Shown here: one piece after another, positions 15,277 to 60,142 of the stretch
Position numbering within the stretch: the first letter of the stretch is position 1
Layout of the letters: each line of letters starts with the position of its first letter
DNA from: Escherichia phage p000y
Sequence record: MK047718.1
Length of the DNA: 64,000 nucleotides
Direction: 5' to 3' (one strand)
Notes under the pieces: generated by a model
What the model saw: the letters and a program-made list of their open reading frames with translations, nothing else
What the model was told of the DNA's origin: nothing
Databases searched by the model: none
Translations under genes and position numbers: made by a program

Positions 15277-15962
<686 letters not shown>

Positions 15963-15975
15963 TTTTCACAAAACA

Positions 15976-16005
15976 GTTTACATAAGGATGGTGGTGTGTT
16001 ACTAT
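15976..16005 (+). promoter_or_regulatory. T4-type early promoter (GTTTACA -35, 17-nt spacer, TACTAT -10) upstream of ipI
   Basis: Hexamers read directly from sequence with sigma70 spacing. Confidence 0.55.
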
Positions 16006-16039
16006 CATCCTATCAAATAAACAACCTCAAGGAAATAAA

Positions 16040-16327
16040 ATGAAAACTTATAAAGAATTTATATCACCTGCTGCTAACGTTTCTACTCTGACCGAAGCAA
16101 CCCTTACTTCCGAAGTTATTAAAGCAAACAAAGGCCGTGAGGGTAAACCAATGATTAGTCTGGTTGACGGCGAAGAAGTAAAAGGTACTGTTTACTTAGG
16201 GGATGGATGGTCTGCTAAGAAAGATGGCGCTACTATTGTTATCTCTCCGGCTGAAGAGACTGCACTGTTTAAAGCTAAGCATATTTCTGTAGCTCAGCTT
16301 AAAATTATTGCAAAAACTCTTCTGTAA
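16040..16327 (+). CDS. ipI: internal protein I (IPI-type injected anti-restriction protein precursor)
   Basis: 95 aa; N-terminal capsid-targeting sequence MKTYKEFI followed by prohead-protease-type L-x-E sites; T4 IPI is 95 aa. Confidence 0.85.
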   Translation: MKTYKEFISPAANVSTLTEATLTSEVIKANKGREGKPMISLVDGEEVKGTVYLGDGWSAKKDGATIVISPAEETALFKAKHISVAQLKIIAKTLL

Positions 16328-17352: not shown

Positions 17353-17425
17353 TGGGAATTAGCCAAGTTGGTAAGGCACTGGATTTTGATTCCAGGATGC
17401 AAAGGTTCGAGTCCTTTATTCCCAG
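17353..17425 (+). tRNA. tRNA-Gln (anticodon UUG)
   Basis: Manual cloverleaf: acceptor TGGGAAT/ATTCCCA, anticodon loop TTTTGAT, T-arm AAAGG-TTCGAGT-CCTTT. Confidence 0.8.
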
Positions 17426-17426
17426 C

Positions 17427-17513
17427 GCGAGAATGGCCAAATTGGTAAAGGCACAGCACTTAAAATGCTGCGGAATGATTTCCTTGTGGGTTCGAGTCCC
17501 ACTTCTCGCACCA
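17427..17513 (+). tRNA. tRNA-Leu (anticodon UAA), long variable arm, CCA encoded
   Basis: Acceptor GCGAGAA/TTCTCGC, anticodon loop CTTAAAA, T-loop TTCGAGT. Confidence 0.8.
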
Positions 17514-17518
17514 AATTT

Positions 17519-17592
<74 letters not shown>

Positions 17593-17602
17593 ATTTAATT
17601 TA

Positions 17603-17676
17603 CTCCGTGTAGCTCAGTTTGGTAGAGCGCCTGATTTGGGATCAGGAGGTCCAAGGTTCAAATCCTTGTATGGAGA
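17603..17676 (+). tRNA. tRNA-Pro (anticodon UGG)
   Basis: Acceptor CTCCGTG/TATGGAG with G-U pairs, anticodon loop TTTGGGA, T-loop TTCAAAT. Confidence 0.75.
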
Positions 17677-17678
17677 CT

Positions 17679-17768
17679 GGAGGCGTGGCAGAGTGGTTTA
17701 ATGCACCGGTCTTGAAAACCGGCAGTCGCTCCGGCGACTCATAGGTTCAAATCCTATCGCCTCCGCCA
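17679..17768 (+). tRNA. tRNA-Ser (anticodon UGA), long variable arm, CCA encoded
   Basis: Acceptor GGAGGCG/CGCCTCC, anticodon loop CTTGAAA, T-loop TTCAAAT. Confidence 0.8.
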
Positions 17769-17773
17769 ATTTT

Positions 17774-17849
17774 GCTGATTTAGCTCAGTAGGTAGAGCAA
17801 CTCACTTGTAATGAGAAGGTCGGCGGTTCGATTCCGTCAATCAGCACCA
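17774..17849 (+). tRNA. tRNA-Thr (anticodon UGU), CCA encoded
   Basis: Acceptor GCTGATT/AATCAGC, anticodon loop CTTGTAA, T-loop TTCGATT. Confidence 0.8.
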
Positions 17850-17850
17850 A

Positions 17851-17925
17851 GGCCCTGTAGCTGGAAGGTTCAAGCAAGCGACTCATAATCGCCAGATGGT
17901 GGTTCAATTCCACCCAGGGCCACCA
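17851..17925 (+). tRNA. tRNA with anticodon CAU (Ile lysidine-type as in T4, or Met), CCA encoded
   Basis: Acceptor GGCCCTG/CAGGGCC, anticodon loop CTCATAA, T-loop TTCAATT. Confidence 0.7.
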
Positions 17926-17937
17926 AATTATGAATTA

Positions 17938-18024
17938 GGGGAGTTATCCCGTAGAGGTAGCGGTGTGGACTGTAAATCCATTGTCATTGCGACTCGGGTG
18001 GTTCGACTCCATCACTCCCAACCA
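17938..18024 (+). tRNA. tRNA-Tyr (anticodon GUA), long variable arm, CCA encoded
   Basis: Anticodon stem GTGGA/TCCAT with loop CTGTAAA, T-loop TTCGACT; acceptor has G-A at pair 1-72, so ends are approximate. Confidence 0.65.
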
Positions 18025-18028
18025 ATTT

Positions 18029-18103
18029 GGATGTGTAGCTCAATGGCAGAGCGATCGCCTGTTAAGCGATTGGTTATAGGTTCGAATCCTATCACGTCCG
18101 CCA
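18029..18103 (+). tRNA. tRNA-Asn (anticodon GUU), CCA encoded
   Basis: Acceptor GGATGTG/CACGTCC, anticodon stem ATCGC/GCGAT with loop CTGTTAA, T-loop TTCGAAT. Confidence 0.75.
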
Positions 18104-18107
18104 AATA

Positions 18108-18184
<77 letters not shown>

Positions 18185-18202: not shown

Positions 18203-18547
18203 ATGAAAGGCAATGTTTATCTGGTAGTTCATGATTTAACGTTTTATTTTAATGAATATGATACAGTTATTTCTCATCGATTGATTAATTCACTTTATCA
18301 GCATGCCGATTACATCTATGTTCAAAATGAATTCGGTCATTGGAAGTTCATTAAAAACCGTTCTGGGTTAACTAGTTTTGAATACTTTGACCGTAAAGAC
18401 CTTTTAAACGAAATTCCATTGCAACATCGGTTCCAGAAACGCGAATCATTATATTATTGCCGTCATATACCAAACGCAGAATGTGCCAATGAAGCGATTA
18501 ATCTATGGCGTAGACGTAGAGAACAAATTGATGATATGCCAAAATAA
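18203..18547 (+). CDS. hypothetical protein
   Basis: ATG 18203 with GAGGAA SD, immediately after tRNA-Arg; track ORF 18155 start overlaps the tRNA. Confidence 0.6.
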   Translation: MKGNVYLVVHDLTFYFNEYDTVISHRLINSLYQHADYIYVQNEFGHWKFIKNRSGLTSFEYFDRKDLLNEIPLQHRFQKRESLYYCRHIPNAECANEAINLWRRRREQIDDMPK

Positions 18548-18858
18548 GAAGCCGGGTCGCTACCGGTAAGTCGTCGGACTGATGTTCCCTGAGTAAGGAC
18601 TGGTCTTAATAAATCTTTATGATTCGTTAATATCCCCTTACATCACAGCAGAAACGGCGCACAGAATTATCGATTCGAGGAAATATCTTTGCCGTAAGCC
18701 GAGTAGCGTTTTTGACGGAACGTTCGGATATGGTCGAGATATGGCCTTTTAAAAATATTGAGTAGCGTCAACTGCTTAATAACCGGGTTCGAATCCCGGC
18801 GTTTCGTACAAACATTTGCCTTAGCAGGTGGGACCCCAACAAGGTTGCCGCAAGGCAT
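18548..18858 (+). ncRNA. putative stable small RNA region (position equivalent to T4 species 1/2 RNAs); contains a tRNA-like T-arm
   Basis: About 310 nt without a convincing plus-strand ORF between a CDS and a strong terminator; contains CCGGG-TTCGAAT-CCCGG T-arm-like hairpin. Confidence 0.3.
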
Positions 18859-18887
18859 AGCCCCTTCCGAAAGGTTGGGGCTTTTTT
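18859..18887 (+). terminator. rho-independent terminator (AGCCCC...GGGGCT + T6), copy 1 of a repeated stem-loop
   Basis: GC-rich hairpin followed by TTTTTT. Confidence 0.7.
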
Positions 18888-18931
18888 GCATAATAATAAA
18901 TAGATAAGTTAATTAACTTAGGAAAAGTAAC

Positions 18932-19396
18932 ATGAAGTCATATGCAGAATTTTTGACTGAACAATCTAGTTCAGATGTAAAAGCCGCAGCAATTGCAGCA
19001 ATTCAAGCAGGTAAATATTCTTATAAAGACGCCTCTGATGAAGAACGTTTCCGTTTTATTAGAGATTTTAAAGCTGAAGGTTTTACTAATGCTAATACTG
19101 TTAGCCGAGTTTTTAAAAGCCTAGCTGCATCAGGTGAATTGTTCCAGAAAGCTACAGGTAAAGCACCAGCACCAAAAGCGGACCCTAAAGCAGCTCAAGA
19201 AAAAAATATCGCCAAAGGAATTATTTCTAAGTATGAAGCAATTCTTAAAGAACTTTTGGTAATCAAAACTGAAGGTCAGAAACTAGCTCGAGCATATAGC
19301 TTCAAAGATAATCCTCACGCTCATAGCCTTGAGTATGTTGAAGATATCCAAAAACTTATTAAAGACCGTATCTGGTCTGCTAAGCAAATTAAATAG
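18932..19396 (+). CDS. internal-protein-like protein with capsid-targeting sequence
   Basis: 154 aa; N-term MKSYAEFLTEQ matches the IP capsid-targeting consensus MK(T/S)Y(Q/A)EF(I/L)xE. Confidence 0.65.
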   Translation: MKSYAEFLTEQSSSDVKAAAIAAIQAGKYSYKDASDEERFRFIRDFKAEGFTNANTVSRVFKSLAASGELFQKATGKAPAPKADPKAAQEKNIAKGIISKYEAILKELLVIKTEGQKLARAYSFKDNPHAHSLEYVEDIQKLIKDRIWSAKQIK

Positions 19397-19401
19397 TAGA
19401 A

Positions 19402-19429
19402 AGCCCCTTCCTTACGGTTGGGGCTTTTT
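19402..19429 (+). terminator. rho-independent terminator, copy 2 of the repeated stem-loop
   Basis: AAGCCCCTTCCTTACGGTTGGGGCTTTTT. Confidence 0.7.
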
Positions 19430-19462
19430 GGCATCTAGGGCATAAAAATATTTCATAAAGAT

Positions 19463-19491
19463 GTTTACTTCTTCCCTAGATGTGTTACTAT
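19463..19491 (+). promoter_or_regulatory. early promoter (GTTTACT -35, TACTAT -10)
   Basis: Follows terminator copy 2; 16-nt spacer. Confidence 0.55.
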
Positions 19492-19519
19492 AGACCTATC
19501 AAAACATGAGGAGAATATT

Positions 19520-26440: not shown

Positions 26441-26673
26441 GTATAGCAATTTACATTAAATCAGAATCATGTGATAGTTATCTGTACACATACGATAAAG
26501 ATGTGTCAGAAGAAAAAATCAAAGACGACCTTAATATGGACCTTGATATGTTCTGTCCTATTGCAGATTACAAACTTGCGGTCTCTAATAGTGAAAGTCC
26601 ATCTAAAGAAACGCGCATTGAAGAATTTATGTCCGAATTAATGGCCAAATCATGGGACCGAGATGATGAGTAA
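26437..26673 (+). CDS. hypothetical protein
   Basis: ATGA start/stop overlap with upstream gene (track ORF 26422). Confidence 0.55.
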   Translation: MSIAIYIKSESCDSYLYTYDKDVSEEKIKDDLNMDLDMFCPIADYKLAVSNSESPSKETRIEEFMSELMAKSWDRDDE

Positions 26674-27121
26674 GAAAAATAAAGTGAAAGAACTATCAGC
26701 CGGTATTATTTTCCTTACCGAAGATAAAGAATTATTCATGGGGCGTGTAACTGGTTCTCGTCCTAAAGGTGCATTAGCTCATCGGTGGGATATTCCTAAA
26801 GGACGTGTCGAGCCCGGTGAATCTCCTATTGAAGCCGCTATTCGCGAATGCGAAGAAGAAACTGGGTTTACACAATATGACCCTGCCTTCCTGAAAGACC
26901 TAGGTGAACATAATTACTCAGACAATAAGAATATTCATCTGTTCCTATATACCATCCCTGTAGAGCACGAGCAATTCAGAAACAGTGTTTGTAATTCATA
27001 TCATACATTCCCAGACGGACGACAGATTCCTGAATTTGATGCATTCGCTTTAATTAAACCTTCTCAATGGGAATATGTAATGGGCAAATCATTATATAAG
27101 GTGCTCACTACCCTCCTATAA
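26663..27121 (+). CDS. nudE: Nudix hydrolase NudE (e.1)
   Basis: 152 aa; Nudix box GRVEPGESPIEAAIRECEEETGF; position upstream of e as in T4. Confidence 0.85.
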   Translation: MMSKKNKVKELSAGIIFLTEDKELFMGRVTGSRPKGALAHRWDIPKGRVEPGESPIEAAIRECEEETGFTQYDPAFLKDLGEHNYSDNKNIHLFLYTIPVEHEQFRNSVCNSYHTFPDGRQIPEFDAFALIKPSQWEYVMGKSLYKVLTTLL

Positions 27122-27129
27122 GTAATAAA

Positions 27130-27153
27130 TACCTCCTATAAACGTGGGAGGTA
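27130..27153 (+). promoter_or_regulatory. hairpin sequestering the lysozyme SD, with late-promoter-like TATAAA in the loop
   Basis: Inverted repeat TACCTCC/GGAGGTA; 3' arm contains the e Shine-Dalgarno; same architecture as described for T4 e. Confidence 0.5.
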
Positions 27154-27155
27154 TT

Positions 27156-27644
27156 ATGAATATATTTGAAATGCTTCGTAATGACGAAGGTCTTAGACTG
27201 ACTTTATACAAAGACACCGAAGGCTTTTGGACGATTGGCATAGGCCATTTAGTAACAAAGAACCCGTCTTTAGCCGTAGCTAAAGCTGAACTTGACAGAA
27301 TGATCGGTCGTAAATGCAACGGTACAATTACCCTTGATGAGGCTGAAAAGCTATTTAATGAAGACGTTGATAAAGCCGTTCGCGGAATCTTGGGTAATGC
27401 TAAACTTAAACCGGTGTATGATTCTTTAGATGCGGTTCGTCGATGTGCATTGGTCAATATGGTCTTCCAAATGGGTGTAGCAGGCGTCGCCGGTTTTACT
27501 AATTCTCTTCGTATGCTTCAACAGAAACGTTGGGACGAAGCGGCAGTAAATCTAGCCCAATCTAAATGGTATCGTCAGACACCTAATCGCGCGAAACGCG
27601 TAATCTCAACATTTAAAACAGGAACTTGGAAAGCGTATATATGA
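27156..27644 (+). CDS. e: endolysin (T4-type lysozyme)
   Basis: [32 protein letters not shown]... near-identical to T4 lysozyme by recall; ATG 27156 inside track ORF 27144. Confidence 0.95.
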
Positions 27645-27922
27645 AAACATATAGTGAATTTTTATCAGAATCTATTCTTAACGAAGCTACCGACACATTT
27701 GCAACTAAGCTAGGTGCAGCTTTGGTTGAAGCTGAAAGTCTATTAGCACGTATTTCTGAACTTGCTAGTAAGATAGATACTCGCAAATTTGAACGTACCA
27801 GCGATATCGCTAAGCTTGAAGCCTTGTTGCGTATGTGCGATAAACCAGAAGAAATCGCTAAGAACGGCTCGCTGATGAAACAACGTCTTGAAAAATATAT
27901 TTCAGGCGCTTCAGAAAAATAG
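27641..27922 (+). CDS. internal-protein-like protein with capsid-targeting sequence
   Basis: [11 protein letters not shown]-terminus; ATGA overlap with e stop. Confidence 0.65.
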
Positions 27923-27924
27923 TG

Positions 27925-27953
27925 TTTACTTCCTCCAAGGATTTTGATACTAT
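27925..27953 (+). promoter_or_regulatory. early promoter (TTTACT, 17 nt, TACTAT) upstream of denV
   Basis: Read from sequence. Confidence 0.55.
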
Positions 27954-27980
27954 ACATTCATCAACTACTTGGAGGAAATT

Positions 27981-28394
27981 ATGACTCGTATCAATTTAAC
28001 ACTTGTTTCTGAACTGTCCGACCAACATCTTATGGCTGAGTATCGTGAATTACCACGCGTATTTGGTGCAGTCCGTAAACATGTTCAAAACGGTAAACGT
28101 GTAAAGGATTTTAAAATCTCTCCAACATTTATCTTAGGCACAGGTCACGTAACATTCTTTTACGACAAACTCGAATTTTTACGTTTACGTCAAATCGAGC
28201 TAATCGCTGAATGCTTGAAACGTGGTTTCAAAATCAAGGACACGACTGTCCAGGATATTTCCGACATTCCTGTAGAATTTCGTAATAATTACGTCCCGTC
28301 CGAAGCGTCCATTGCGATAAGTCAAGCACGCTTAGATGAAAAAATTGCTCAACGGCCGTCTTGGTACAAATACTATGGTAAATCAATTTACTAA
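27981..28394 (+). CDS. denV: endonuclease V (pyrimidine dimer DNA glycosylase)
   Basis: [12 protein letters not shown]...[16 protein letters not shown] near-identical to T4 DenV by recall; 137 aa. Confidence 0.93.
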
Positions 28395-28401
28395 GGAAAA
28401 A

Positions 28402-28662
28402 ATGAAAATGTATCAAGAATTTATCATTGAAGCAGATGCCAAAGACCCCAAATTTAAAGTTAAAGCTTTCATTGGTGATGCGGAAGACTTTGGCTCATTA
28501 AAACGTAATGGGTATTCTTTCTTAGGTGGCGATGGTAAAGAAATCAACACCTATGCAAAACGTAGTGAAATTGCTTATGTTGTAGTAAGTCCTAAAGTAG
28601 ATGTTGACGATATTGGATACGATTTTAACAACTTCGGAATTATTTCTGGCGGTAAAGCTTAA
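28402..28662 (+). CDS. internal-protein-like protein with capsid-targeting sequence
   Basis: MKMYQEFIIE N-terminus. Confidence 0.6.
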   Translation: MKMYQEFIIEADAKDPKFKVKAFIGDAEDFGSLKRNGYSFLGGDGKEINTYAKRSEIAYVVVSPKVDVDDIGYDFNNFGIISGGKA

Positions 28663-28666
28663 ATTG

Positions 28667-28695
28667 TTTACGCTTAAGTATTAATATGGTATAAT
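28667..28695 (+). promoter_or_regulatory. early promoter (TTTACG, 17 nt, TATAAT)
   Basis: Read from sequence. Confidence 0.55.
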
Positions 28696-28726
28696 TACTC
28701 TATCAAAACAAACAAGGAAACAAAAA

Positions 28727-29041
28727 ATGAAAACGTATAAAGAATTTATTGCAGAATCCGCCAACCAACGCGTTGAAGGTGGTTATATTTGGATTGAACA
28801 AGTTGAGCCACCGAGCCGCACTTCTACAGGTAAATGGAAAATTACTGTTGACGGTCCTGGTGGTAAACGTAGGACTCTTAAAGAAATTAATGGGTACTAT
28901 GAAGAAGCTCTTTCGGATGCAGGAACTTACATGATGCAAATCATGATTAAAAACCCTGAAAACCGTTTTGCAGCTAAAGTCTTCCGTCGTATTGGTAATA
29001 AACTTTATGATGCATACTCTAAAAACTTCCCTAAAGAATAA
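28727..29041 (+). CDS. internal-protein-like protein with capsid-targeting sequence
   Basis: MKTYKEFIAE N-terminus. Confidence 0.65.
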   Translation: MKTYKEFIAESANQRVEGGYIWIEQVEPPSRTSTGKWKITVDGPGGKRRTLKEINGYYEEALSDAGTYMMQIMIKNPENRFAAKVFRRIGNKLYDAYSKNFPKE

Positions 29042-29066
29042 CATAAATTAAAACAATAGGAACAAA

Positions 29067-29396
29067 ATGAAAACATATCAGGAGTTTATCACTGAAGTTA
29101 CATTATCTGCGGAACAGAAAGCTGCTATCGAAGAAGGTAAGAATCCCAAAGTAACATATAAAGTAAATAGTAAAGGCGTTTTTGATGGCTTGGTTCAAGA
29201 CCCTGAATTGAAAAAAGCTCTTTCTAAAACTAATGCGTACTTTGCTCCTAAATTTAACGCAGCCGGTGTACTTATTGGATTGGATGTATTCAACTCTAAA
29301 GGTGTTCTATCTAATGCCTTTGGTTATGCCGCTAACAAAATTACCAAAGCCGCATGGGAATCCAATACCAAACAAGCTCAAAAGCCTAGAGTATAA
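29067..29396 (+). CDS. internal-protein-like protein with capsid-targeting sequence
   Basis: MKTYQEFITE N-terminus. Confidence 0.65.
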   Translation: MKTYQEFITEVTLSAEQKAAIEEGKNPKVTYKVNSKGVFDGLVQDPELKKALSKTNAYFAPKFNAAGVLIGLDVFNSKGVLSNAFGYAANKITKAAWESNTKQAQKPRV

Positions 29397-29568
29397 TTCT
29401 TGCCTAATAAAGGGAAACGCAACCTCTCCTCATGAACGTCGAGTCCTCTGAGTGATGTACCTTTTCCAACCTGTAATAAGGTCGAGCGCAATGCGGTAAT
29501 GGGTTTACATAGCGAGTCGAAGGACCTAACATGTGCCACGGAATGGCCCAAACCTTAAGAGAAATAAT

Positions 29569-30108
29569 ATGAGAACATTTTTAACTGGACCTTATCTATC
29601 CCTGATGAATGCTTTTACACACCATTCTGATGCTAGAGTAGAAGAAATTTGTAAGAACGGTTATGTCCCACCATTTGAAGACGTACTCAAGCAGTACTGT
29701 ACACTTCGTTTAGACGGCGGCCGACAATCAGGTAAATCAATTGCTGTGACTAACTTTGCTGCTAATTGGCTGTATGATGGCGGAACAGTTATTGTTCTTT
29801 CTAATACTTCAGCTTATGCTAAAATTTCTGCTGGCAACATTGAAAAAGAATTTTCTCGTTATTCTAGCGACGATATTCGATTCCGTTTATTTACTGATTC
29901 TGTTCGTAGTTTTATTGGCAATGAAGGTTCTAAATTCCGTGGATTAACGCTTTCTCGTATTCTGTATATAATTGACGAGCCTATTAAAGCTCCTGATATG
30001 GATAAGATTTACAATGTACATATTAAAACAGTCCAACACTGTTGCAAAAGCAAATATTGCATCGGCGGTAATGCTCGTCCTCAATTTTTTGTGATTGGAA
30101 TGCAATGA
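29569..30108 (+). CDS. P-loop NTPase-like hypothetical protein
   Basis: Walker A GGRQSGKS and Walker B-like LYIIDEP; ATG 29569 inside track ORF 29533. Confidence 0.6.
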   Translation: MRTFLTGPYLSLMNAFTHHSDARVEEICKNGYVPPFEDVLKQYCTLRLDGGRQSGKSIAVTNFAANWLYDGGTVIVLSNTSAYAKISAGNIEKEFSRYSSDDIRFRLFTDSVRSFIGNEGSKFRGLTLSRILYIIDEPIKAPDMDKIYNVHIKTVQHCCKSKYCIGGNARPQFFVIGMQ

Positions 30109-30413
30109 TGACCACCATTGAAGTTTTTGAATATTGTTATAACAGCCCAGTATGCAATAAAAGGGCCCTTGTAGAAAATTACGAGATTTACCATTTTAAA
30201 CCTAAACGATATCGTTTGACTAAAGGTCCGTTCGCAGGGCAGCAGGTTCTTTGTACTGCTCCTAATGCACGACTGATGACTAGTATTCCACATTTCAAAA
30301 TGGAATTTATTGACGGGCCATTTAAGGGATTAATCACTCAAAGTTTAATGGCGTTTAATTCCGACCCATTTTTGATTAAAGAAAAAATTTGGATAAATTT
30401 ATTTTCTAATTGA
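30105..30413 (+). CDS. hypothetical protein
   Basis: 102-aa ORF. Confidence 0.6.
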   Translation: MMTTIEVFEYCYNSPVCNKRALVENYEIYHFKPKRYRLTKGPFAGQQVLCTAPNARLMTSIPHFKMEFIDGPFKGLITQSLMAFNSDPFLIKEKIWINLFSN

Positions 30414-51956: not shown

Positions 51957-52514
51957 ATGACTGAACAAAAACCTAAAAATAACTATGTGAATAATAAAGA
52001 GCTTCTCGCCGCTATAATCGAGTGGAAAAAGGAGCTCTTAAATAATAAAGACCCAAACAAAATTATTCGTCAGAATGATACCATCGGTTTAGCAATTATG
52101 CTTATCGCCGAAGGCCTGTCCAAACGTTTCAACTTTTCAGGATATACCCAGTCTTGGAAGCAGGAGATGATTGCAGATGGGATTGAAGCCTCTATTAAGG
52201 GACTTCATAATTTCGACGAAACTAAGTACAATAACCCACATGCATACATAACTCGAGCTTGTTTTAATGCTTTTGTCCAACGTATCAAAAAAGAACGTAA
52301 GGAAGTTGCAAAGAAATATAGTTACTTCGTTCATAATGTCTACGACAGTCATGACGATGATATGGTAGCGTTGGTAGATGAAACGTTTATTCAAGACATC
52401 TACGATAAAATGACGCATTATGAAGAATCCGCTTATAAAGCTCCTGGGGCTGAAAAGAAGGAAGTTGTTAGCGATTCGCCTAGTTTGGATTTTTTATATG
52501 AGGATGACAATTGA
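51957..52514 (+). CDS. 55: late-transcription sigma factor gp55
   Basis: 185 aa; [20 protein letters not shown]...[24 protein letters not shown] near-identical to T4 gp55 by recall. Confidence 0.93.
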
Positions 52515-52713
52515 CATCTCTAACTACTTAGAAGAACCTTTTGACGAAGCAATCCCTTATTTGGTAAAACTGTTGGGTCGAGAATTTAAAATTAATTTTG
52601 ACATCGACCCTTTGAACCCGCATGACGTGTCATTTTCGATAAATGGGACTCCAGTTGAGTACGAGTTCTGTATTGAAGAGGACGGACGTTTTTATTTTAA
52701 TTTAATGAGATAA
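52498..52713 (+). CDS. hypothetical protein
   Basis: Start uncertain (52498 or 52504); overlaps 3' end of gene 55. Confidence 0.4.
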
Positions 52714-52714
52714 T

Positions 52715-53038
52715 ATGACTACCGAGATTATTGAAAATAAAGAAGCAGAAGATGCAGTAGCTAAAATGCTACAAGAAATCCAAAAGAAAAATGAAGCTGA
52801 AGCACGTAAAAAATCCGAAAAGATTCTTAAAAAGAATCGTTTTGAACTAAACCGTCTTTATGCACATGCTCAAGAAGCAGCAATTCAAAACAACTTCGAA
52901 GCTTACGAATATGCTATTAAGAAATCTCGGGATATTCTACGACAACCGTATAATGACAAGTTAATTAAAATACAGTGGGTTACTACTCGTCAGGCTATTG
53001 AGGACATCATTAATGGCGCTAGTTCAAACAAAGTTTAA
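52715..53038 (+). CDS. hypothetical coiled-coil protein
   Basis: 107-aa ORF. Confidence 0.6.
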   Translation: MTTEIIENKEAEDAVAKMLQEIQKKNEAEARKKSEKILKKNRFELNRLYAHAQEAAIQNNFEAYEYAIKKSRDILRQPYNDKLIKIQWVTTRQAIEDIINGASSNKV

Positions 53039-53219
53039 ACGTCTGAAGCTGAACGCAGGGTTCACCGTTAAATTGGGTGGTCCTCTTTGTGTTAAAATTT
53101 CTGAAAAGGAATATCACGACGGTTCTATTACAGAAATTTGTCCGCCTATTGTAAAGGCAGACCCAAAACAACTCGTGTGGGTTGATTCATTTCAAGTTAA
53201 GAAATGGTGGAAACGATGA
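53013..53219 (+). CDS. hypothetical protein
   Basis: ATG 53013 inside track ORF 52998. Confidence 0.5.
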   Translation: MALVQTKFKRLKLNAGFTVKLGGPLCVKISEKEYHDGSITEICPPIVKADPKQLVWVDSFQVKKWWKR

Positions 53220-53258
53220 GAGAAATCGATTTAGGCATTTTCTGAGAGGTGCTTATGC

Positions 53259-53432
53259 ATGACGAACATCCCGACTTCTGAAAATTTCGATAAAATCCGT
53301 AAAGGCAAAGCAGAAAGAATGAGACGTTTTAAAGAGTCTTATGATAAAGCTAAAGCCGAAGGAACTATTACGTACAAGCCCATTCGATTTAAAAGTTCAA
53401 ATGAGCCTCTGTACGGTGTACTATGTGGATAG
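53259..53432 (+). CDS. small hypothetical protein (57 aa)
   Basis: Below track cutoff; GAGAGGTG SD; followed by terminator. Confidence 0.45.
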   Translation: MTNIPTSENFDKIRKGKAERMRRFKESYDKAKAEGTITYKPIRFKSSNEPLYGVLCG

Positions 53433-53456
53433 GAACTCTTCGGAGTTCCTTTTTTG
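53431..53456 (+). terminator. rho-independent terminator
   Basis: AGGAACTC-TTCG-GAGTTCCT followed by TTTTTT. Confidence 0.7.
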
Positions 53457-53478
53457 CTTTATAAACGGATGATAGAAT
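53455..53478 (+). promoter_or_regulatory. MotA-dependent middle promoter candidate for gene 47 (MotA box TGCTTTA, 11-nt gap, -10 TAGAAT)
   Basis: T4 middle promoter consensus (a/t)(a/t)TGCTT(t/c)A about 12 bp upstream of TAnnnT. Confidence 0.5.
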
Positions 53479-53501
53479 GAATTAACTAATGAGGAAATAA
53501 T

Positions 53502-54521
53502 ATGAAAATTTTGCACTTAGGCGACTTCCATATCGGAGTCAAACAAGACGACCCATGGGTTCAAGATATTCAACGTGATGGTATTCGACAAGCAATTGAA
53601 TACTCTAAGAAACACGGGATTAAAACTTGGATTCAGTACGGTGATTGGTTTGACGTTCGTAAAGCAATAACACATCGTACAATGGAATTCAATCGTGAAA
53701 TCGTTGATATGATTTCTAAAGCAGGCATTCACGTTCATGTCACGATAGGAAACCATGACATGGCGTTTAAGAATACAATAACACCTAACACTGTTTCTGA
53801 ATTGTTAACTCAATTTGAAAACTTTACTATTTACGAGCATCCAACTACTGTAGATTTTGACGGATGTCTGATTGATATCGTTCCATGGATGTGTGAAGAA
53901 AATACAGGTGAAATCTTAGAGCACATCAAGACTTCTTCTGCTGCGTATTGTGTTGGTCACTGGGAACTGAACGGCTTTTATTTCTATAAAGGAATGAAGT
54001 CCCATGGGCTTGAACCTGATTTCTTAAAGACCTATAAACAAGTCTGGTCCGGCCACTTCCACACAATCTCTGAAGCTGCTAACGTCAAATATATTGGGAC
54101 ACCATGGACCCTTACTGCAGGTGACGAGAACGACCCACGTGGATTCTGGGTATTTGACACTGATGTTGAACGTATGGAATTTATTCCTAATGAAACAACA
54201 TGGCATCGACGAATCACTTATCCATTTAAAGGCAAAATCAATTATTCTGATTATACTAATCTAGCCGTACGTGTTATAGTATCAGAAATTGATTCAGAGT
54301 TGACTAAGTTTGAATCTGAACTTGAAAAAGTAGTTCACTCTCTTCGTATGGTTTCTAAAGTTGATAACAGTGTTGAATCTGATGACGACCAGGAAATCGA
54401 GATTAAATCACTTCAAGATATCATTAAAGAATATATTGACGCGATTCCAGATATCTCAGACGAAGACAGAGAAGCGCTGGTCAAATATTCCAACGAACTT
54501 TATATTGAGGCAACACAATGA
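53502..54521 (+). CDS. 47: recombination endonuclease subunit gp47 (Mre11-like)
   Basis: 339 aa as T4 gp47; phosphoesterase motifs GDFH, GNHD, GHWE, GHFH. Confidence 0.93.
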   Translation: MKILHLGDFHIGVKQDDPWVQDIQRDGIRQAIEYSKKHGIKTWIQYGDWFDVRKAITHRTMEFNREIVDMISKAGIHVHVTIGNHDMAFKNTITPNTVSELLTQFENFTIYEHPTTVDFDGCLIDIVPWMCEENTGEILEHIKTSSAAYCVGHWELNGFYFYKGMKSHGLEPDFLKTYKQVWSGHFHTISEAANVKYIGTPWTLTAGDENDPRGFWVFDTDVERMEFIPNETTWHRRITYPFKGKINYSDYTNLAVRVIVSEIDSELTKFESELEKVVHSLRMVSKVDNSVESDDDQEIEIKSLQDIIKEYIDAIPDISDEDREALVKYSNELYIEATQ

Positions 54522-54775
54522 CTTTAGATGAATTTAATAATGCTGGGCTCGGGCTTGAAGTTGAAATAGACGTTAAAGATGATGATGGATTCGAGAACAC
54601 TATCAAGTATTGGATTGAGCCATTACGCGTTGAAGGCAATGAAGTTAAAGCCGTTCATGTCTGTACCGACTGGGCTATTGAATTTAGCTTTAATATAATG
54701 GACAACGATACTCCTAGCTCTATTCTTAAAATGGCTGAAGCGTGTATTGAGGATGCGTATAATGACGAAGACTGA
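54518..54775 (+). CDS. hypothetical protein
   Basis: 85-aa ORF between 47 and 46. Confidence 0.6.
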   Translation: MTLDEFNNAGLGLEVEIDVKDDDGFENTIKYWIEPLRVEGNEVKAVHVCTDWAIEFSFNIMDNDTPSSILKMAEACIEDAYNDED

Positions 54776-55001
54776 CTATGAAATCCATCGTCACGAATTT
54801 AGTATTGGCGACGGTTATATTGGTATCGTTGAATGGACTGAGAATTACGAGGAATCAACTCCTCGTTTCTTTGGAACAATGTATGTTACCTGTGAGTACG
54901 CACCAGGTGTTGTTATGTATGCAGAACTAGATGAATATTTTGCTGATAGAGATGACATGTTAAAATATGTAGAGGACTTCATTCGAAGAGAATACATATG
55001 A
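54762..55001 (+). CDS. hypothetical protein
   Basis: ATG 54762 inside track ORF 54747. Confidence 0.5.
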   Translation: MTKTDYEIHRHEFSIGDGYIGIVEWTENYEESTPRFFGTMYVTCEYAPGVVMYAELDEYFADRDDMLKYVEDFIRREYI

Positions 55002-56686
55002 AATCATTTAAATTAAATCGTGTTCGTTATCAAAACATCATGTCGGTAGGTGGGAATCCTATTGATATCCAATTAGATAAAGTCCAAAAGACATTAATCA
55101 CTGGTAAAAATGGCGGTGGTAAATCTACGATGTTAGAAGCCATTACTTTCGGACTTTTCGGTAAACCATTTCGTGATGTTAAGAAAGGACAAATCATTAA
55201 TAGCACGAACAAGAAAGAGCTCTTAGTTGAGCTTTGGATGGAATTCGATGATAAAAAATACTTCATTAAACGTGGCCAAAAGCCCAATATTTTCGAAATC
55301 TCCGTTGACGGTGTTCGTCTTGATGAATCTGCCAGCAGTCGCGACTTCCAAGAAGAATTTGAACGTAGCATCGGAATGTCATACGCGTCTTTTAAACAGA
55401 TCGTTGTGCTTGGGACGGCAGGGTATACCCCTTTCATGGCTCTTAGCACCCCTGCTCGCAGAAAGCTTGTTGAAGACTTATTAGAAGTTGGAACACTCGC
55501 TGAAATGGATAAAATCAATAAGTCTCAAGTTCGAGAACTTAATTCCCAGGGGCAAGTTCTCGATGCCAAGAAAGATGGTATTATCCAACAAATTAAGATT
55601 TATAACGAGAATATCGAACGTCAAAAGAAATTATCTGGCGATAATGTAGCGCGTCTACAGAATATGTATGACGACCTAGCCAAAGAAGCTCGTTCATTAA
55701 AAGCAGAAATCGAAGAAGCTAATGAGCGACTACTTAATATCGTTCTTGATGAAGACCCTACTGAGGCATTCAATAAGATAGGACAAGAAGCATTCTTGAT
55801 TAAATCTAAAATTGACTCATATAACAAAGTTATTAAGATGTATCATGATGGCGGTACATGTCCTACTTGCGCATCACAGTTGCACCAGGGTGATCCTATT
55901 GTCTCTAAGATTACCGATAAGCTTCATGAATGTAATCACTCATTCGAGCAACTTACCTGCCACAGAGATAATCTGAGTGTCCTAGTGGACGAATATAGAG
56001 CTAATGTTAAGACTAAGCAGGACCTTGCATCTGATATTCGTACCAAGAAACAAGCAATGATTGCCACTATTGATAAAGCTAAGAAAGTTAAAGCTGCAAT
56101 AGAGCAAGCCTCGGCAGAATTTATCGACCATGCCGATGAGATAGCTTTGCTTCAAAAAGAACTTGATAAAATCATTAAAACAAAATCAGATATCGTTCTT
56201 GAAAAATACCATCGTGGTATTATCACAGATATGTTAAAAGATTCTGGTATTAAAGGTGCTATCATTAAAAAATATGTGCCTCTGTTCAACAAGCAGATTA
56301 ACCATTACCTTAAAATCATGGAAGCTGATTACGTGTTTTCTATTGATGAAGAATTCAATGAATCTATAAAATCACGTGGCCGTGAAGAGTTCAGTTATGC
56401 TTCATTTAGTCAAGGTGAAAAGGCACGTATCGATATCGCATTGTTGTTTACATGGCGAGATATTGCTGAAAAAGTTTCCGGTGTTAAAATCAACACGTTG
56501 ATTCTTGATGAGGTTTTTGATGGGGCAGTTGATTCTGAAGCTGTTAAGGCTATAGATACCATTCTTGGAAGTTTACAAAATACTAACGTGTTCATTATCT
56601 CTCATCGAGACCATGACCCTCAACGTTATGGACAACATCTTCAGATGAGTAAAGTTGGACGATTTACTGTGATGACTGTTTCATAA
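54998..56686 (+). CDS. 46: recombination endonuclease subunit gp46 (Rad50-like ATPase)
   Basis: 562 aa; Walker A GKNGGGKST, central coiled coil with CPTC hook, C-terminal signature/Walker B. Confidence 0.93.
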   Translation: MKSFKLNRVRYQNIMSVGGNPIDIQLDKVQKTLITGKNGGGKSTMLEAITFGLFGKPFRDVKKGQIINSTNKKELLVELWMEFDDKKYFIKRGQKPNIFEISVDGVRLDESASSRDFQEEFERSIGMSYASFKQIVVLGTAGYTPFMALSTPARRKLVEDLLEVGTLAEMDKINKSQVRELNSQGQVLDAKKDGIIQQIKIYNENIERQKKLSGDNVARLQNMYDDLAKEARSLKAEIEEANERLLNIVLDEDPTEAFNKIGQEAFLIKSKIDSYNKVIKMYHDGGTCPTCASQLHQGDPIVSKITDKLHECNHSFEQLTCHRDNLSVLVDEYRANVKTKQDLASDIRTKKQAMIATIDKAKKVKAAIEQASAEFIDHADEIALLQKELDKIIKTKSDIVLEKYHRGIITDMLKDSGIKGAIIKKYVPLFNKQINHYLKIMEADYVFSIDEEFNESIKSRGREEFSYASFSQGEKARIDIALLFTWRDIAEKVSGVKINTLILDEVFDGAVDSEAVKAIDTILGSLQNTNVFIISHRDHDPQRYGQHLQMSKVGRFTVMTVS

Positions 56687-56740
56687 ACGCTTTAACACGA
56701 TGTGGTTATAATGACCACATCAAATTAAATGGAGAACAAC

Positions 56741-56929
56741 ATGGAGTATTCAACCGGACAACATCTTCTTGTTGTCCCTGAAATTAAAAAATATGTTTTG
56801 ACCAATACGTTTTCAGGTGAAGAACATATTGTTACTGAACAAATGCTCAAATCTGCTTTTAAAGATGAGTATAATAAAATAATGTCTAATCGCAATTCCG
56901 CATGGACAGTTACTGACTTCTACGAATAA
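56741..56929 (+). CDS. hypothetical protein
   Basis: ATG 56741 after GGAG SD inside track ORF 56729. Confidence 0.55.
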   Translation: MEYSTGQHLLVVPEIKKYVLTNTFSGEEHIVTEQMLKSAFKDEYNKIMSNRNSAWTVTDFYE

Positions 56930-56941
56930 GAGAGAAATAAT

Positions 56942-57358
56942 ATGTTTACTACTGCTAAAGGTTTCACTGCTGCTGATCTGAAAGTTACTTCTATCCGTAC
57001 TGACGCTAACCCGCATAACCATAATCGTGTTCGTAAAGCATGGGTCCTGCATTGTGATGACGCAAGTGCTAAAAAGCTTCAATCTTTGCCACAAGAAACT
57101 CGTTTTATGATTTATGGTTTTATTGATAACGATGTATCTGATATGTGGATTCATCTGATGCGTAAGCACTATAAAGATTCTATTGAAGCCGGTGGAAAAA
57201 TCGTTCTTGATAAAGATGGTTCTGAGCGTCTGGAAGATTTCTACTGTGTTGATGCCGACGAACAATTAATTGCAGCTGGCGAAATTGTTGCTTCTAAAAT
57301 TCCAGAATATATTGAATCACTGCCTGAAGCTATTAAAAAGCAGATGGTTGCTGCATAA
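56942..57358 (+). CDS. rpbA: RNA polymerase binding protein RpbA-like
   Basis: 138 aa immediately upstream of gene 45 as in T4; assigned by synteny and size. Confidence 0.65.
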   Translation: MFTTAKGFTAADLKVTSIRTDANPHNHNRVRKAWVLHCDDASAKKLQSLPQETRFMIYGFIDNDVSDMWIHLMRKHYKDSIEAGGKIVLDKDGSERLEDFYCVDADEQLIAAGEIVASKIPEYIESLPEAIKKQMVAA

Positions 57359-57400
57359 TAAATTTGTTATAAACTTTGAATTGTCTTGAAAGGAAATAAA

Positions 57401-58087
57401 ATGAAACTGTCTAAAGATACTATCGCTATTCTGAAAAACTTTGCCTCTATTAACTCCGGTATTCTGCTGAGTCAAGGTAAATTTATTATGACCCGTGCAG
57501 TTAATGGCACCACTTATGCGGAAGCAAATATCTCTGATGAAATTGATTTTGACGTAGCACTTTATGATTTGAATAGCTTCTTAAGCATTTTGAGTCTAGT
57601 GTCTGACGATGCTGAAATTTCAATGCACACTGATGGCAATATTAAAATTGCAGATACACGTTCCACAGTTTATTGGCCTGCTGCCGACAAGAGCACTATT
57701 GTTTTTCCTAATAAGCCAATTCAATTCCCGGTGGCTTCTGTGATTACTGAAATTAAAGCTGAAGACCTTCAACAATTGCTTCGAGTTTCACGTGGTCTCC
57801 AAATTGATACAATTGCTATTACAAATAAAGATGGTAAAATTGTTATCAATGGTTACAATAAAGTTGAAGATTCTGGCTTGACTCGTCCTAAGTATTCTTT
57901 GACTCTTACCGATTATGATGGTTCTAACAACTTTAACTTCGTAATCAATATGGCTAATATGAAAATCCAGCCAGGTAACTATAAAGTAATGCTGTGGGGA
58001 GCTGGTGATAAAGTTGCAGCCAAGTTTGAAAGCTCTCAAGTAAGTTATGTTATTGCAATGGAAGCCGATTCTACTCACGACTTCTAA
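57401..58087 (+). CDS. 45: sliding clamp gp45
   Basis: 228 aa; MKLSKDTIAILKNFASINSGI... near-identical to T4 gp45 by recall. Confidence 0.95.
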   Translation: MKLSKDTIAILKNFASINSGILLSQGKFIMTRAVNGTTYAEANISDEIDFDVALYDLNSFLSILSLVSDDAEISMHTDGNIKIADTRSTVYWPAADKSTIVFPNKPIQFPVASVITEIKAEDLQQLLRVSRGLQIDTIAITNKDGKIVINGYNKVEDSGLTRPKYSLTLTDYDGSNNFNFVINMANMKIQPGNYKVMLWGAGDKVAAKFESSQVSYVIAMEADSTHDF

Positions 58088-58162
58088 GTCAAAGCTTTAA
58101 GTTTATTGTGATACGATTACGGAGGAGAAATCCTCCAGTTTAATGATAATGAGGAAAATTAC

Positions 58163-59125
58163 ATGATTACTATCAATTCCAAAGAACACATTCTAGAACA
58201 GAAATATCGTCCTTCTTCCATTGACGAATGTATTCTGCCTGCGTATGACCATGAAACATTCAAGTCTTTAGTATCTAAAGGAAAACTTCCTCATATTATT
58301 TTACACTCTCCTTCTCCTGGTACAGGTAAAACAACCGTAGCAAAAGCATTATGTAATGATATCAATGCCGAAATGATGTTCGTCAACGGTTCTGATTGTA
58401 AGATTGATTTTGTGCGTGGTCCGTTAACTGCATTCGCTCGTTCAGTCTCAATGGAAGGCAAGCCGAAAGTTATTGTTATTGATGAATTTGACCGTAGTGG
58501 CCTTGCTGAATCACAACGGCACCTTCGTACATTCATGGAAGAATTCTCTAGTAACTGTTCTATTATTATTACTGCTAACAACATCGATGGAATTATTGAA
58601 CCATTACGTAGTCGTTGTCGAGTTATCGAATTCGGACGTCCAACCGAAGAAGATAAAATCTCGATGATGAAGAAAATGATTCATCGTATGGTTGAAATCT
58701 GTAAGAATGAAAATATCGAAATCGCTGATATGAAAGTTGTTGCAGCTCTGGTTAAAAAGAATTTCCCGGACTTTCGACGTACAATTGGCCAATTAGACCA
58801 GTACTCGTCTAAAGGTGTTCTTGATGCAGGTATTCTGTCTATCGTAACTAATGACCGTGGCACAGTCTCTGATGTTATCGAAGCAATGAAGAACAAAGAT
58901 ATCAAACAACTTCGTGCATTAGCTCCAAAATATGCTGCAGATTATTCATGGTTCATCGATAAATTAGTTTCAGAATGTTATGACCAAGTTGCACCTGGTA
59001 AAAGTATTATTTCGCTTTACGAAATTGCAGGCGAAAATAATAAGTTTCATGGACTAGCAAGTAATATTGAATTACATGTTATGTATATGCTTCTTCAACT
59101 GACCTGCGAACTGACTTGGAAATAA
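58163..59125 (+). CDS. 44: clamp loader large subunit gp44
   Basis: 320 aa; Walker [15 protein letters not shown] Walker B; matches T4 gp44. Confidence 0.95.
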
Positions 59126-59126
59126 T

Positions 59127-59690
59127 ATGAACTTATTCGATGATGACGTCCAGCTTAACGAGCACCAAATTGCATGGAAGTCTAATGACGCTGATGCGAT
59201 TCAAAAATGTGCTGATATGTTTAAAGAAAAACCTGAGAATGAATTCTTTAAAATCATTAATGCTATTAATGAAAAGAAATCTATGTCAATTGCTCAGGTC
59301 GACTACTCAAAATTTATGGTTGAGAACTCATTATCCCAGTTCCCGGAATGTATGCCAGCCGTTTACATGATGAACTTAGTCGGTTCTGAATTAAGCGATG
59401 AAGCGCACTTCAACTATATGATGGCGGCAATTCCACGTGGCCGACGATTCTCTAAATGGGCTAAACTAGTCGAAGACACTTCAGAGTTACTAGTTATCAA
59501 ACTGTTGATGAAACATTACACAATCAACATGAATGATGCTACCGAGTATAAGCGGCTCCTTGAAAAAAATAACAAGTTGCCAATAGTCCTTAAAGAACTG
59601 AAGGCCATGGTCACTGATGAGTTTCTCAAAGAAGTTACAAAAAATGTGAAAGAACAAAAACAATTTAAAAAATTAGCATTGGAATGGTAA
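59127..59690 (+). CDS. 62: clamp loader small subunit gp62
   Basis: 187 aa; synteny between 44 and regA. Confidence 0.9.
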
Positions 59691-59692
59691 AA

Positions 59693-60061
59693 ATGATTGA
59701 AATTAAATTGAAGAACCCTGAAGATTTTCTGAAAGTCAAAGAGACTTTGACCCGTATGGGCATCGCTAATAACAAGGATAAAGTCCTTTACCAGTCTTGT
59801 CATATCCTCCAAAAGCAGGGTAAATATTACATCGTCCACTTTAAAGAAATGTTGCGTATGGACGGACGTCAGGTTGATATTGACGGTGAAGACTATCAGC
59901 GACGTGATTCGATTGCCCAGTTGCTTGAAGACTGGGGATTGATTGTTATTGAAGACTCTGCTCGTGAAGATCTGTTTGGCCTGACTAATAACTTCCGTGT
60001 TATCTCTTTTAAACAGAAAGATGACTGGACTTTGAAAGCAAAATACACAATTGGTAATTAA
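59693..60061 (+). CDS. regA: translational repressor RegA
   Basis: 122 aa; MIEIKLKNPEDFLKVKETLTRMGIANNKDKVLYQSCHILQK near-identical to T4 RegA by recall. Confidence 0.93.
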   Translation: MIEIKLKNPEDFLKVKETLTRMGIANNKDKVLYQSCHILQKQGKYYIVHFKEMLRMDGRQVDIDGEDYQRRDSIAQLLEDWGLIVIEDSAREDLFGLTNNFRVISFKQKDDWTLKAKYTIGN

Positions 60062-60065
60062 AGCA

Positions 60066-60085: not shown

Positions 60086-60142
60086 GGAGTATAATAAGTT
60101 CATCAACAAACAAAAGACAATAACTCGTCTAAAGGAAATTAA

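Follow-up and report, generated by a model that had tools for sequence, protein, structure and literature searches.

Six small genes of the Mosigvirus p000y as probable members of the hypervariable, injected internal-protein set of T-even phages

Hypervariable, leader-tagged internal proteins of T4-like phages have been described since 1994. IPII and IPIII of T4 are small, start with a ten-residue leader (MKTYQEFIAE), are encoded in the e-denV neighborhood and are injected with the DNA. In the leader of IPIII, Y4 and F7 serve in targeting, and position 8 and E10 serve in processing (PMC9026906). The RB69-group phages share the T4 head-morphogenesis core, as established for T4-related phages (PMC9026906). 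The names Ip4 to Ip10 go back to Repoila et al. 1994, as cited in PMC12373910 and PMC3012670, and their use here rests on GenBank annotations and those citing papers.

Several of these proteins have known targets. Ip1, Ip2 and Ip3 each block one variant of the type IV enzyme GmrSD, with Ip2 and Ip3 each inhibiting a distinct enzyme (PMC12373910). T4 IPII and IPIII are inhibitors of GmrSD-ECOR21 (BrxU) and GmrSD-ECOR17, respectively (PMC12373910). McrBC is inhibited by Bas37_0260, a leader-tagged protein of phage Bas37 (HIDEN-SEQ preprint, 10.1101/2025.11.20.689424). The original prediction, which credited IPI alone with a known role in T4, is therefore outdated on this point. In tests on those members of 15 synthesised GmrSD groups that were active, ip4-10 of T4-like phages gave no reproducible inhibition. 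Silas et al. make the case that the ip loci, taken together, track the diversity of GmrSD (PMC12373910). BrxU, a member of the GmrSD family, restricts a Mosigvirus and cleaves arabinosylated DNA in vitro. These targets (of Ip1, Ip2, Ip3 and Bas37_0260), and targeting, cleavage and injection in T4, are taken from the literature.

We analysed a window of 64,000 nucleotides from Escherichia phage p000y (MK047718.1). The source belongs to Mosigvirus, with 99% identity to APCEc01 and 98% to RB69. Six open reading frames, all on the plus strand and referred to below by their start positions, begin with a T4-type leader. They and their landmarks are:

15950 to 16062, plus strand: recombination junction relative to RB69, covering the 57B-ipI intergenic region and the opening ~23 nt of the leader
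16040 to 16327, plus strand: ipI (Ip1), with a 19-residue propeptide, MKTYKEFISPAANVSTLTE, then a mature GmrSD inhibitor of the IPI* type, 76 residues long
18887 to 19505, plus strand: variable cassette relative to RB69 (blastn homology to RB69 ends at 18886 and resumes at 19506)
18932 to 19396, plus strand: leader-bearing ORF of 154 aa that follows the tRNA cluster and homologues of rnaD/rnaC, a candidate internal protein not annotated as one
27156 to 27644, plus strand: gene e (lysozyme), the left landmark, whose stop codon overlaps the start of 27641
27641 to 27922, plus strand: Ip5-like internal protein of 93 aa, with predicted cleavage after E10 and E15
27981 to 28394, plus strand: denV (endonuclease V), within the internal-protein array
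28402 to 28662, plus strand: internal-protein family member of 86 aa, mature part acidic (pI 5.2)
28667 to 28695, plus strand: sigma-70/early-type promoter-like site upstream of 28727 (TTTACG, 17 nt, TATAAT, with TG; a consensus match only)
28727 to 29041, plus strand: Ip10, 104 aa, by homology to annotated ip10
29067 to 29396, plus strand: orthologue of RB69ORF123c, 109 aa, a candidate internal protein not annotated as one

We found that the leader marks these six ORFs and no others in the window. All six start with MK(T/S/M)Y.EF(I/L), and a purine-rich ribosome-binding stretch precedes each ATG. A six-frame search of the window with M[KR].[YF].[ED][FY] gave exactly six matches, each at one of these starts; mononucleotide shuffles gave a mean of 0.12 matches, and 0.0 for the stricter MK.Y.EF[LI]. 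Looser leader patterns added no ORF start in the window. M1, K2, Y4 and F7 are present in every one of the six. The leaders are MKSYAEFLTE in 18932 (followed by QSS), MKMYQEFIIE in 28402 (then A), MKTYKEFIAE in 28727 (then S) and MKTYQEFITE in 29067 (then V). In 27641, the predicted cleavage after residue 10 is followed by SILNE, a second predicted cleavage and then A. 16040 reads MKTYKEFISP...LTE and then A. Thus (I/L)8-x-E10 is found in five ORFs, and 16040 instead has L17-T18-E19, as T4 IPI does. Judged by motif, a site for the prohead protease gp21, (L/I)-x-E, is predicted to close the propeptide in all six. The original prediction had claimed a T4 capsid-targeting consensus in six ORFs, each followed by an L/I-x-E prohead-protease site. 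The scan returned just these six, and the comparison of N-termini that the prediction had proposed as a check gave Y4 and F7, and an (L/I)-x-E ending at residue 10 (five ORFs) or residue 19 (16040), throughout.

The first of the six, 16040, is Ip1, the orthologue of T4 IPI. It matched Pfam PF11634 (IPI_T4) over profile positions 1-76 of 76 (E 1.2e-50; 169.8 bits, cut-off 25), and 72 of 76 residues (20-95) are identical to T4 IPI* (PDB 2JUB). Both 16040 and T4 IPI lie after 57B, and in both a propeptide of 19 residues ends in (L/I)-T-E, with A next. Four residues of the mature part differ between the two, as does the start of the leader (MKTYKEFI in 16040, MKTFKEFT in T4 IPI), and the cytosines are arabinosylated in the phage that carries 16040 but glucosylated for T4 IPI. 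The IPI homologue of RB69 is gp155 (PMC13326640), and an Ip1 orthologue was reported to protect RB69 from GmrSD (PMC6024577). 16040 is therefore not an effector of unknown target, as the original prediction had it. The core of that prediction, that these are internal proteins, is supported by homology to Ip1, Ip5-like, Ip10 and internal head protein families.

Sequence upstream of the 16040 ATG matched the spacer between 57B and ORF156c in RB69, and from inside the leader onward the match was to RB69 ipI. The Ip7-like RB69ORF156c is absent at this junction in p000y. The recombination crossover relative to RB69 thus lies within the ipI leader, which is a modest addition of the present analysis.

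Four of the ORFs lie in the e-denV-vs.8 locus. The order in p000y is e, 27641, denV, 28402, 28727, 29067, vs.8, and that in T4 is e, ipIII, ipII, denV, vs.8. The original prediction was correct that the arrangement differs from e-ipIII-ipII-denV; it is not unusual, since ip genes flank denV in VR25 (annotated as ip5, denV, ip10, ..., ip7) and in WG01. The layout in VR25 is nearly identical to that in p000y: e, ip5, denV, ip10, ORF125, ip7, vs.8. Ip7, found in RB69 and Shf125875, is absent from the p000y window, as are orthologues of T4 ipII and ipIII.

Homology places three of these four among internal proteins. 27641 is a diverged Ip5: it is 48-51% identical over 90% of its length to the annotated ip5 of T2, PP01 and fHoEco02, and it matched PHROG 3499, 'internal head protein' (E 2e-46). 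28402 matched PHROG 2667, also 'internal head protein' (E 1.5e-21), has homologues in 217 phage records, and its orthologue in APCEc01 is annotated 'internal head protein' in RefSeq. 28727 shares 96% identity with 'ip10: Ip10 internal head protein' of PP01 and 72% with VR25 ip10. The fourth, 29067, was found in 90 phage records, nearly all 'hypothetical' among the matches listed. It has a 36% homologue in the Dhakavirus WG01 (ORF115), in the same denV-vs.8 slot, with the leader MKTYQQFITE.

The literature names two loci, 57B-ipI-tRNA and e-denV-vs.8, which hold the other five ORFs; the remaining one, 18932, lies beyond both. It matched PHROG 2280 (function unknown), and a tblastn search gave 511 phage records, 'hypothetical' in every one among the matches listed. 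At the position of the 18887-19505 cassette, RB69 has a different leader-bearing gene, ORF149c (N-terminus MKTYAEFLTE), plus ORF148c and e.8. Leader-tagged genes were found in the slot after tRNA/rnaC not only in RB69 but also in Bas37 and in one IMG/VR contig. From its gene content, this slot seems to behave as a third cassette site, a second modest addition of our analysis.

The original prediction that the bodies are unrelated beyond the leader held: an all-against-all BLASTP of the six mature parts gave no pair with E<0.1. Both 28727 and 29067 matched PHROG 3966. We rejected paralogy of these two, as BLASTP found no similarity and hhalign of the leader-trimmed family alignments gave 0.1% probability; the shared leader evidently holds this PHROG together.

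None of the five proteins other than Ip1 matched Pfam or NCBIfam above threshold, and a PDB sequence search with 18932, 28727 and 29067 found no match. BLASTP of the six bodies detected no similarity to T4 IPII or IPIII (best E 0.11-0.15), and comparison with T4 IPII, IPIII, Ip7 and Bas37_0260 also found none. Bas37_0260 shares the leader and is likewise a cassette, next to ipI, but its sequence resembles none of the six. Two other Bas37 proteins are homologues, Bas37_0261 (of 27641, 47% identical) and Bas37_0244 (of 18932); neither is mentioned in the main text of the preprint (10.1101/2025.11.20.689424). AlphaFold gave an entirely helical model for 18932 (pLDDT 74) and, for 29067, a model with a pLDDT of 61, too low for trust. 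Foldseek against the PDB found nothing significant (best E 0.44 for 18932 and 0.72 for 29067), and the models gave no functional clue. In a collection of 5.8 billion proteins, 18932 and 29067 matched close T-even relatives only. The five non-Ip1 ORFs showed no BLASTP likeness, and the models of 18932 and 29067 no fold likeness, to the characterised inhibitors Ip1, Ip2, Ip3 and Bas37_0260. Those inhibitors are mutually unrelated, so the missing similarity is no argument against inhibitor function.

The six small genes are probably ordinary members of the long-known, hypervariable set of T-even proteins injected with DNA. Unrelated bodies (by BLASTP and hhalign), cassettes swapped between related phages and a conserved leader are what was found, the pattern of T4-type internal proteins. 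Different leader-tagged genes fill the same slots in T4, RB69, WG01, VR25 and Bas37. What we observed are motifs, homologies, cassette boundaries and the junction within the leader. From these we infer that the five non-Ip1 proteins would be packaged, cleaved and directed against defence, probably restriction, in p000y. In the mechanism that we propose, the first ten residues would act as a T4-type capsid-targeting sequence that binds the scaffolding core, so that the protein is built into the prohead. gp21 would cut after (L/I)-x-E at residue 10 (19 in Ip1), releasing mature proteins predicted at 8-16 kDa that are kept in the head alongside the DNA. These would be injected with the DNA, ahead of any phage gene expression, and would serve as stoichiometric, highly specific inhibitors of type IV (modification-dependent) enzymes of the GmrSD family and McrBC, which if uninhibited would cut the arabinosylated cytosine DNA of the genus. 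The common leader may double as a short homology patch for recombination that swaps, deletes and adds cassettes at 57B-ipI, at the slot after tRNA/rnaC and at e-denV-vs.8. We found no virion proteome of RB69 or another Mosigvirus in the literature. This gap, the position of 18932, the lack of exact late-promoter matches, the negative result for ip4-10, the structure models that gave no functional clue and the acidic or neutral pI of two mature bodies weigh against the reading. We give a probability of about 0.72 to this reading, that all six are ip genes of an RB69-like Mosigvirus and work in this way.

It is possible that the five uncharacterised proteins are injected against defences other than type IV enzymes, such as BREX, abortive infection or nucleases that sense arabinosylated DNA differently. 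The failure of ip4-10 to inhibit any tested GmrSD variant reproducibly suggests that the Ip5 and Ip10 families may have other targets, and none of the five resembles Ip2, Ip3 or Bas37_0260. However, all known targets of small leader-tagged proteins are so far type IV enzymes, the ip loci have been argued to track GmrSD diversity (Silas et al., PMC12373910), and the sampling covered only 15 GmrSD groups. We consider this explanation unlikely, though a serious contender.

The leaders of 18932 and 29067 could instead be relics of recombination with ip genes, with the proteins acting in the infected cell and not packaged. Both are 'hypothetical' in nearly every record among the matches listed, and 18932 sits outside the classical loci. 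In addition, the 200 nt upstream of each of the six contained no exact late promoter (TATAAATA) and gave only one-mismatch sites, such as AATAAATA at -37 of 18932, so the sequence offers no evident sign that they are expressed late from promoters of their own. In contrast, M1, K2, Y4, F7 and E10 are invariant in the full-length homologues of 18932 (77-98% identity), with L-x-E always directly before the conserved body. The 29067 homologue in another genus (WG01 ORF115) keeps its leader intact in the same ip slot at a body identity of 33%, and the 18932 slot of RB69 holds a different leader-tagged gene. A relic leader is therefore improbable.

That some or all of these are packaged for head assembly or DNA condensation and not for anti-defence is improbable. 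In favour of it, such a role was long proposed for the abundant basic internal proteins of T4, mature 18932, 28727 and 29067 are basic (pI 9.6-9.7) like IPII and IPIII, T4 IPIII mutants have slower head assembly and smaller bursts (PMC9026906), and ip4-10 had no reproducible effect on GmrSD variants (PMC12373910). Against it, T4 ip genes are dispensable on standard laboratory hosts (PMC12373910, PMC9026906), a restriction enzyme is by now known as the target of each of IPI, IPII and IPIII, and an assembly role does not predict extreme turnover of cassettes with unrelated bodies. Two of the bodies also depart from the basic IPII and IPIII in being acidic or neutral (pI 5.2 and 6.3).

Within the reading of all six as injected internal proteins, we tentatively propose, at a little short of an even bet, that the 18932 and RB69ORF123c families are unrecognised injected proteins. 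The tRNA/rnaC slot would be a third ip cassette site holding loosely related proteins of two domains, with a helical N-domain joined through a Pro/Ala/Lys linker to a C-terminal helical hairpin, and their targets would perhaps be defences specific for arabinosylated DNA and not the sampled GmrSD variants.

The interpretation of these genes as leader-tagged internal proteins is broadly right and not new. What the window contributes is a list of candidates from a phage with arabinosyl-cytosine, of which two (18932 and 29067) go unrecognised in all annotations, together with a clear case, at the sequence level, of the shared leader serving as a recombination joint. A specialist would be surprised by neither, as the principle and most of the genes are already described. 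Because internal proteins act before phage gene expression, they help decide which wild E. coli a T-even-type phage infects, and this role in host range is relevant to the choice of phages for therapy.

All six leader-headed ORFs of the original prediction were present in the ORF listing, on the + strand with starts at 16040 (Ip1), 18932, 27641 (Ip5-like), 28402, 28727 (Ip10) and 29067 (RB69ORF123c). That is, the observation is accurate. A search of the six frames of the window with the pattern M[KR].[YF].[ED][FY] matched exactly these ORFs, each match being an ATG with a purine-rich ribosome-binding stretch upstream. Chance matches in 200 shuffles averaged 0.12, and 0.0 for the stricter MK.Y.EF[LI]. 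Looser leader patterns over the window revealed no further ORF start; their sole extra match (37371) is internal to a longer ORF, 117 codons from its start.

In the IPIII leader, truncations and suppressors assigned targeting mainly to residues 4 and 7 and processing to residues 8 and 10 (PMC9026906). Y4 and F7 are present in all six ORFs. The prohead protease sites expected after the leader consensus, L/I-x-E, were found as (I/L)8-x-E10 in five of the six; 16040 instead has I8-S9-P10, with L17-T18-E19|A, exactly the position at which T4 IPI is cut. When the six leaders are aligned over 56 bases, 16 positions are invariant, most of them within ATGAA..TAT...GA.TTT, consistent with the long-standing view that conservation among internal-protein genes is confined to the leader (PMC3012670).

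The bodies had been described as unrelated to each other, and all-against-all BLASTP of the six ORFs bore this out, with no pair of mature parts at E<0.1. Nor did BLASTP of the mature parts against T4 IPII, IPIII and Ip7 give a pair at E<0.1. Because PHROG family 3966 takes in both 28727 and 29067, we built leader-trimmed alignments of the two families from several genera and compared their profiles. The result (0.1% probability over eight aligned columns) led us to reject kinship; judging from the sequences, it is the leader they have in common that artificially groups them.

The gene at 16040 is Ip1 (Pfam IPI_T4, E 1.2e-50). Over residues 20-95 it matches IPI*, whose structure is known (2JUB), at 72 of 76 positions. 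RB69 IPI, a protein that protects its phage from GmrSD, has likewise been reported to have "four residues different" (PMC6024577; PMC13326640). The product of 27641 shows 48-51% identity, across 90% of its length, to annotated ip5 (T2, PP01 and others) and is 47% identical to its Bas37 homologue, Bas37_0261. 28402 matches PHROG 2667 "internal head protein", a name carried by a few of the 217 phage records of its family, and 28727 is 96% identical to the PP01 "Ip10 internal head protein". Nearly all of the 90 records for 29067 are labelled "hypothetical", as are all the listed matches among the 511 records for 18932, which include many Tequatroviruses at ~74% identity. For the five proteins other than Ip1, domain searches gave no match above threshold, and we saw no resemblance to any characterised inhibitor. 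PDB sequence searches with 18932, 28727 and 29067 gave no match, and fold searches with the models of 18932 and 29067 gave no significant one.

By megablast, window 26600-30200 is 99.0% identical (100% coverage) to Escherichia phage APCEc01 and 98.3% identical to RB69, both Mosigviruses. RB69 is annotated here as nudE, e, RB69ORF127c, denV, ORF125c, ORF124c, ORF123c and vs.8, and in RefSeq the APCEc01 counterparts of 27641 and 28402 already bear the name "internal head protein". RB69ORF124c (Ip10) aligns in two pieces.

Both largely unannotated families keep the leader. Full-length homologues of 18932 (77-98% identical) have invariant M1, K2, Y4, F7 and E10, and where some carry an extra "NEAVL", L-x-E still abuts the conserved body. 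Distant relatives of 29067 were found in Dhakavirus only; WG01 ORF115 has a body 33% identical to 29067 and the N-terminus MKTYQQFITE, occupies the same denV-vs.8 slot, and adjoins another leader-tagged ORF. That the leader is retained as the body diverges is an argument for its being functional.

The order of genes between e and vs.8 was noted as unlike that of T4. It does differ, but orders already in GenBank make this normal variation:

T4: e, ipIII, ipII, denV, vs.8
WG01: e, leader-ORF (132 aa), IPIII homologue, denV, ORF115, ORF114, vs.8
VR25 (per annotation): e, ip5, denV, ip10, ORF125, ip7, vs.8
Window: e, Ip5-like, denV, 28402, Ip10, 29067, vs.8

The ip loci act as cassette sites. In RB69, 57B and ipI are separated by an Ip7-like gene, ORF156c, which is missing from the window. 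In a three-way alignment, the window upstream of the ipI ATG follows the RB69 57B-ORF156c spacer almost base for base, and from within the first leader codons onward it is RB69 ipI-like. This switch places the crossover that took out or put in the Ip7 cassette inside the leader. The gene immediately upstream of ipI, 57B (window 15507-15962), has no leader; the T4 57B product is 'RNA ligase' in RefSeq.

A third cassette slot likely lies after the tRNA genes, where 18932 directly follows the tRNA cluster and two homologues of T4 stable RNAs:

18544-18662, rnaD homologue, 86% identical
18670-18808, rnaC homologue, 98.6% identical

RB69 homology stops at 18886 and restarts at 19506, and RB69 has a different leader-tagged gene there, ORF149c (MKTYAEFLTE). 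Bas37 has an 18932 homologue in the slot. On an IMG/VR contig that shares the flanking genes, the slot is filled by a further leader-tagged gene (205 aa). T4 has only e.8 and e.7 here, both without a leader. Silas et al. described two ip loci (PMC12373910); our literature search, outside which a 1994 paper falls, found no mention of a third. In the 18932 model, a PAPKADPKA linker joins a helical N-domain to a helical hairpin. A colinear alignment of 18932 with the 205-aa protein (23% identity, E 1e-4, in a single comparison with the leader included) is a lead rather than a result.

Several other features of this region were observed. The 380-bp gap before 18932, which holds the rnaD and rnaC homologues, has no ORF of its own; neither homologue has an Rfam family, and a terminator-like hairpin and T-run follow at ~18870-18900. 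The cluster (17353-18184) has ten tRNAs (Gln, Leu, Gly, Pro, Ser, Thr, Met, Tyr, Asn, Arg); a ten-tRNA cluster is also present in Shigella phage JK36. At this position tRNA-Met and tRNA-Arg are the only two in RB69 and Shf125875, so the tRNA complement is variable within Mosigvirus. On the minus strand of RB69 (AY303349 2929-3491), the leader-tagged ORF149c (146 aa) overlaps ORF148c and ends in a hydrophobic low-complexity tail; the two look like one gene split by a frameshift in the deposited sequence.

In the 200 nt preceding each of the six ORFs there was no exact T4 late promoter (TATAAATA). Early-type promoter-like sites were seen in the sequence upstream of 16040 and also upstream of 28727, and the e stop codon overlaps the start of 27641.

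We also scanned IMG/VR viral contigs for the leader, written as a degenerate DNA pattern, covering at least 120 loci (L014-L133; + strand examples are L061:10124-10612 and L015:235-759). There were at least 124 matches, 101 of 124 at ORF starts, and the bodies formed at least 62 BLASTP clusters. The largest (at least 16 ORFs, ~160-180 aa, starting MKTY(K/Q)EFMQE-SSLSRIK) belongs by Pfam to the S-AdoMet lyase family (PF23780, E 1e-15), the domain starting at about residue 33; we found no mention in our literature search of a SAM lyase together with the leader. Its contigs carry distant homologues (25-43% identity) of the large ORFs at window 51957-63000, taken by their size as T4-type replication/recombination genes. 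Among the remaining ORFs with the leader are matches to an Alt-like ADP-ribosyltransferase, a weakly Acb1-like 2H phosphoesterase and a cytidylyltransferase. One, on L018, falls in the 2'-5' RNA ligase (2H phosphoesterase) superfamily, with a Pfam Acb1 anti-CBASS match below cut-off. A CHAP endolysin was set aside as a chance match.

What is new here is modest: two unrecognised family members, the likely third slot, and a clean recombination junction inside the leader. The original interpretation is sound in outline and is known biology. In T4, the leader takes internal proteins into the prohead core, where gp21 trims them; each head holds a few hundred copies, which enter the cell by ejection (PMC9026906; PMC3012670); IPIII without its leader is still active in the cytoplasm (PMC9391042). 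The premise that only IPI has a known role is outdated. IPI* inhibits GmrSD of strain CT596 (PMC3012670), Ip2 inhibits GmrSD-ECOR21 (BrxU) and Ip3 the two-gene GmrSD-ECOR17, with no cross-protection (PMC12373910), and the leader-tagged Bas37_0260 inhibits McrBC (10.1101/2025.11.20.689424). When 15 GmrSD groups were synthesised, ip4-10 had no reproducible activity against those members that were active (PMC12373910). Mosigvirus DNA contains arabinosylated 5-hydroxycytosine (PMC13326640), and BrxU, of the GmrSD family, restricts a Mosigvirus and cleaves arabinosylated DNA in vitro (PMC13390438). Based on this mechanism and the targets of the known inhibitors, we infer that the five proteins other than Ip1 are most likely specific inhibitors of modification-dependent nucleases.
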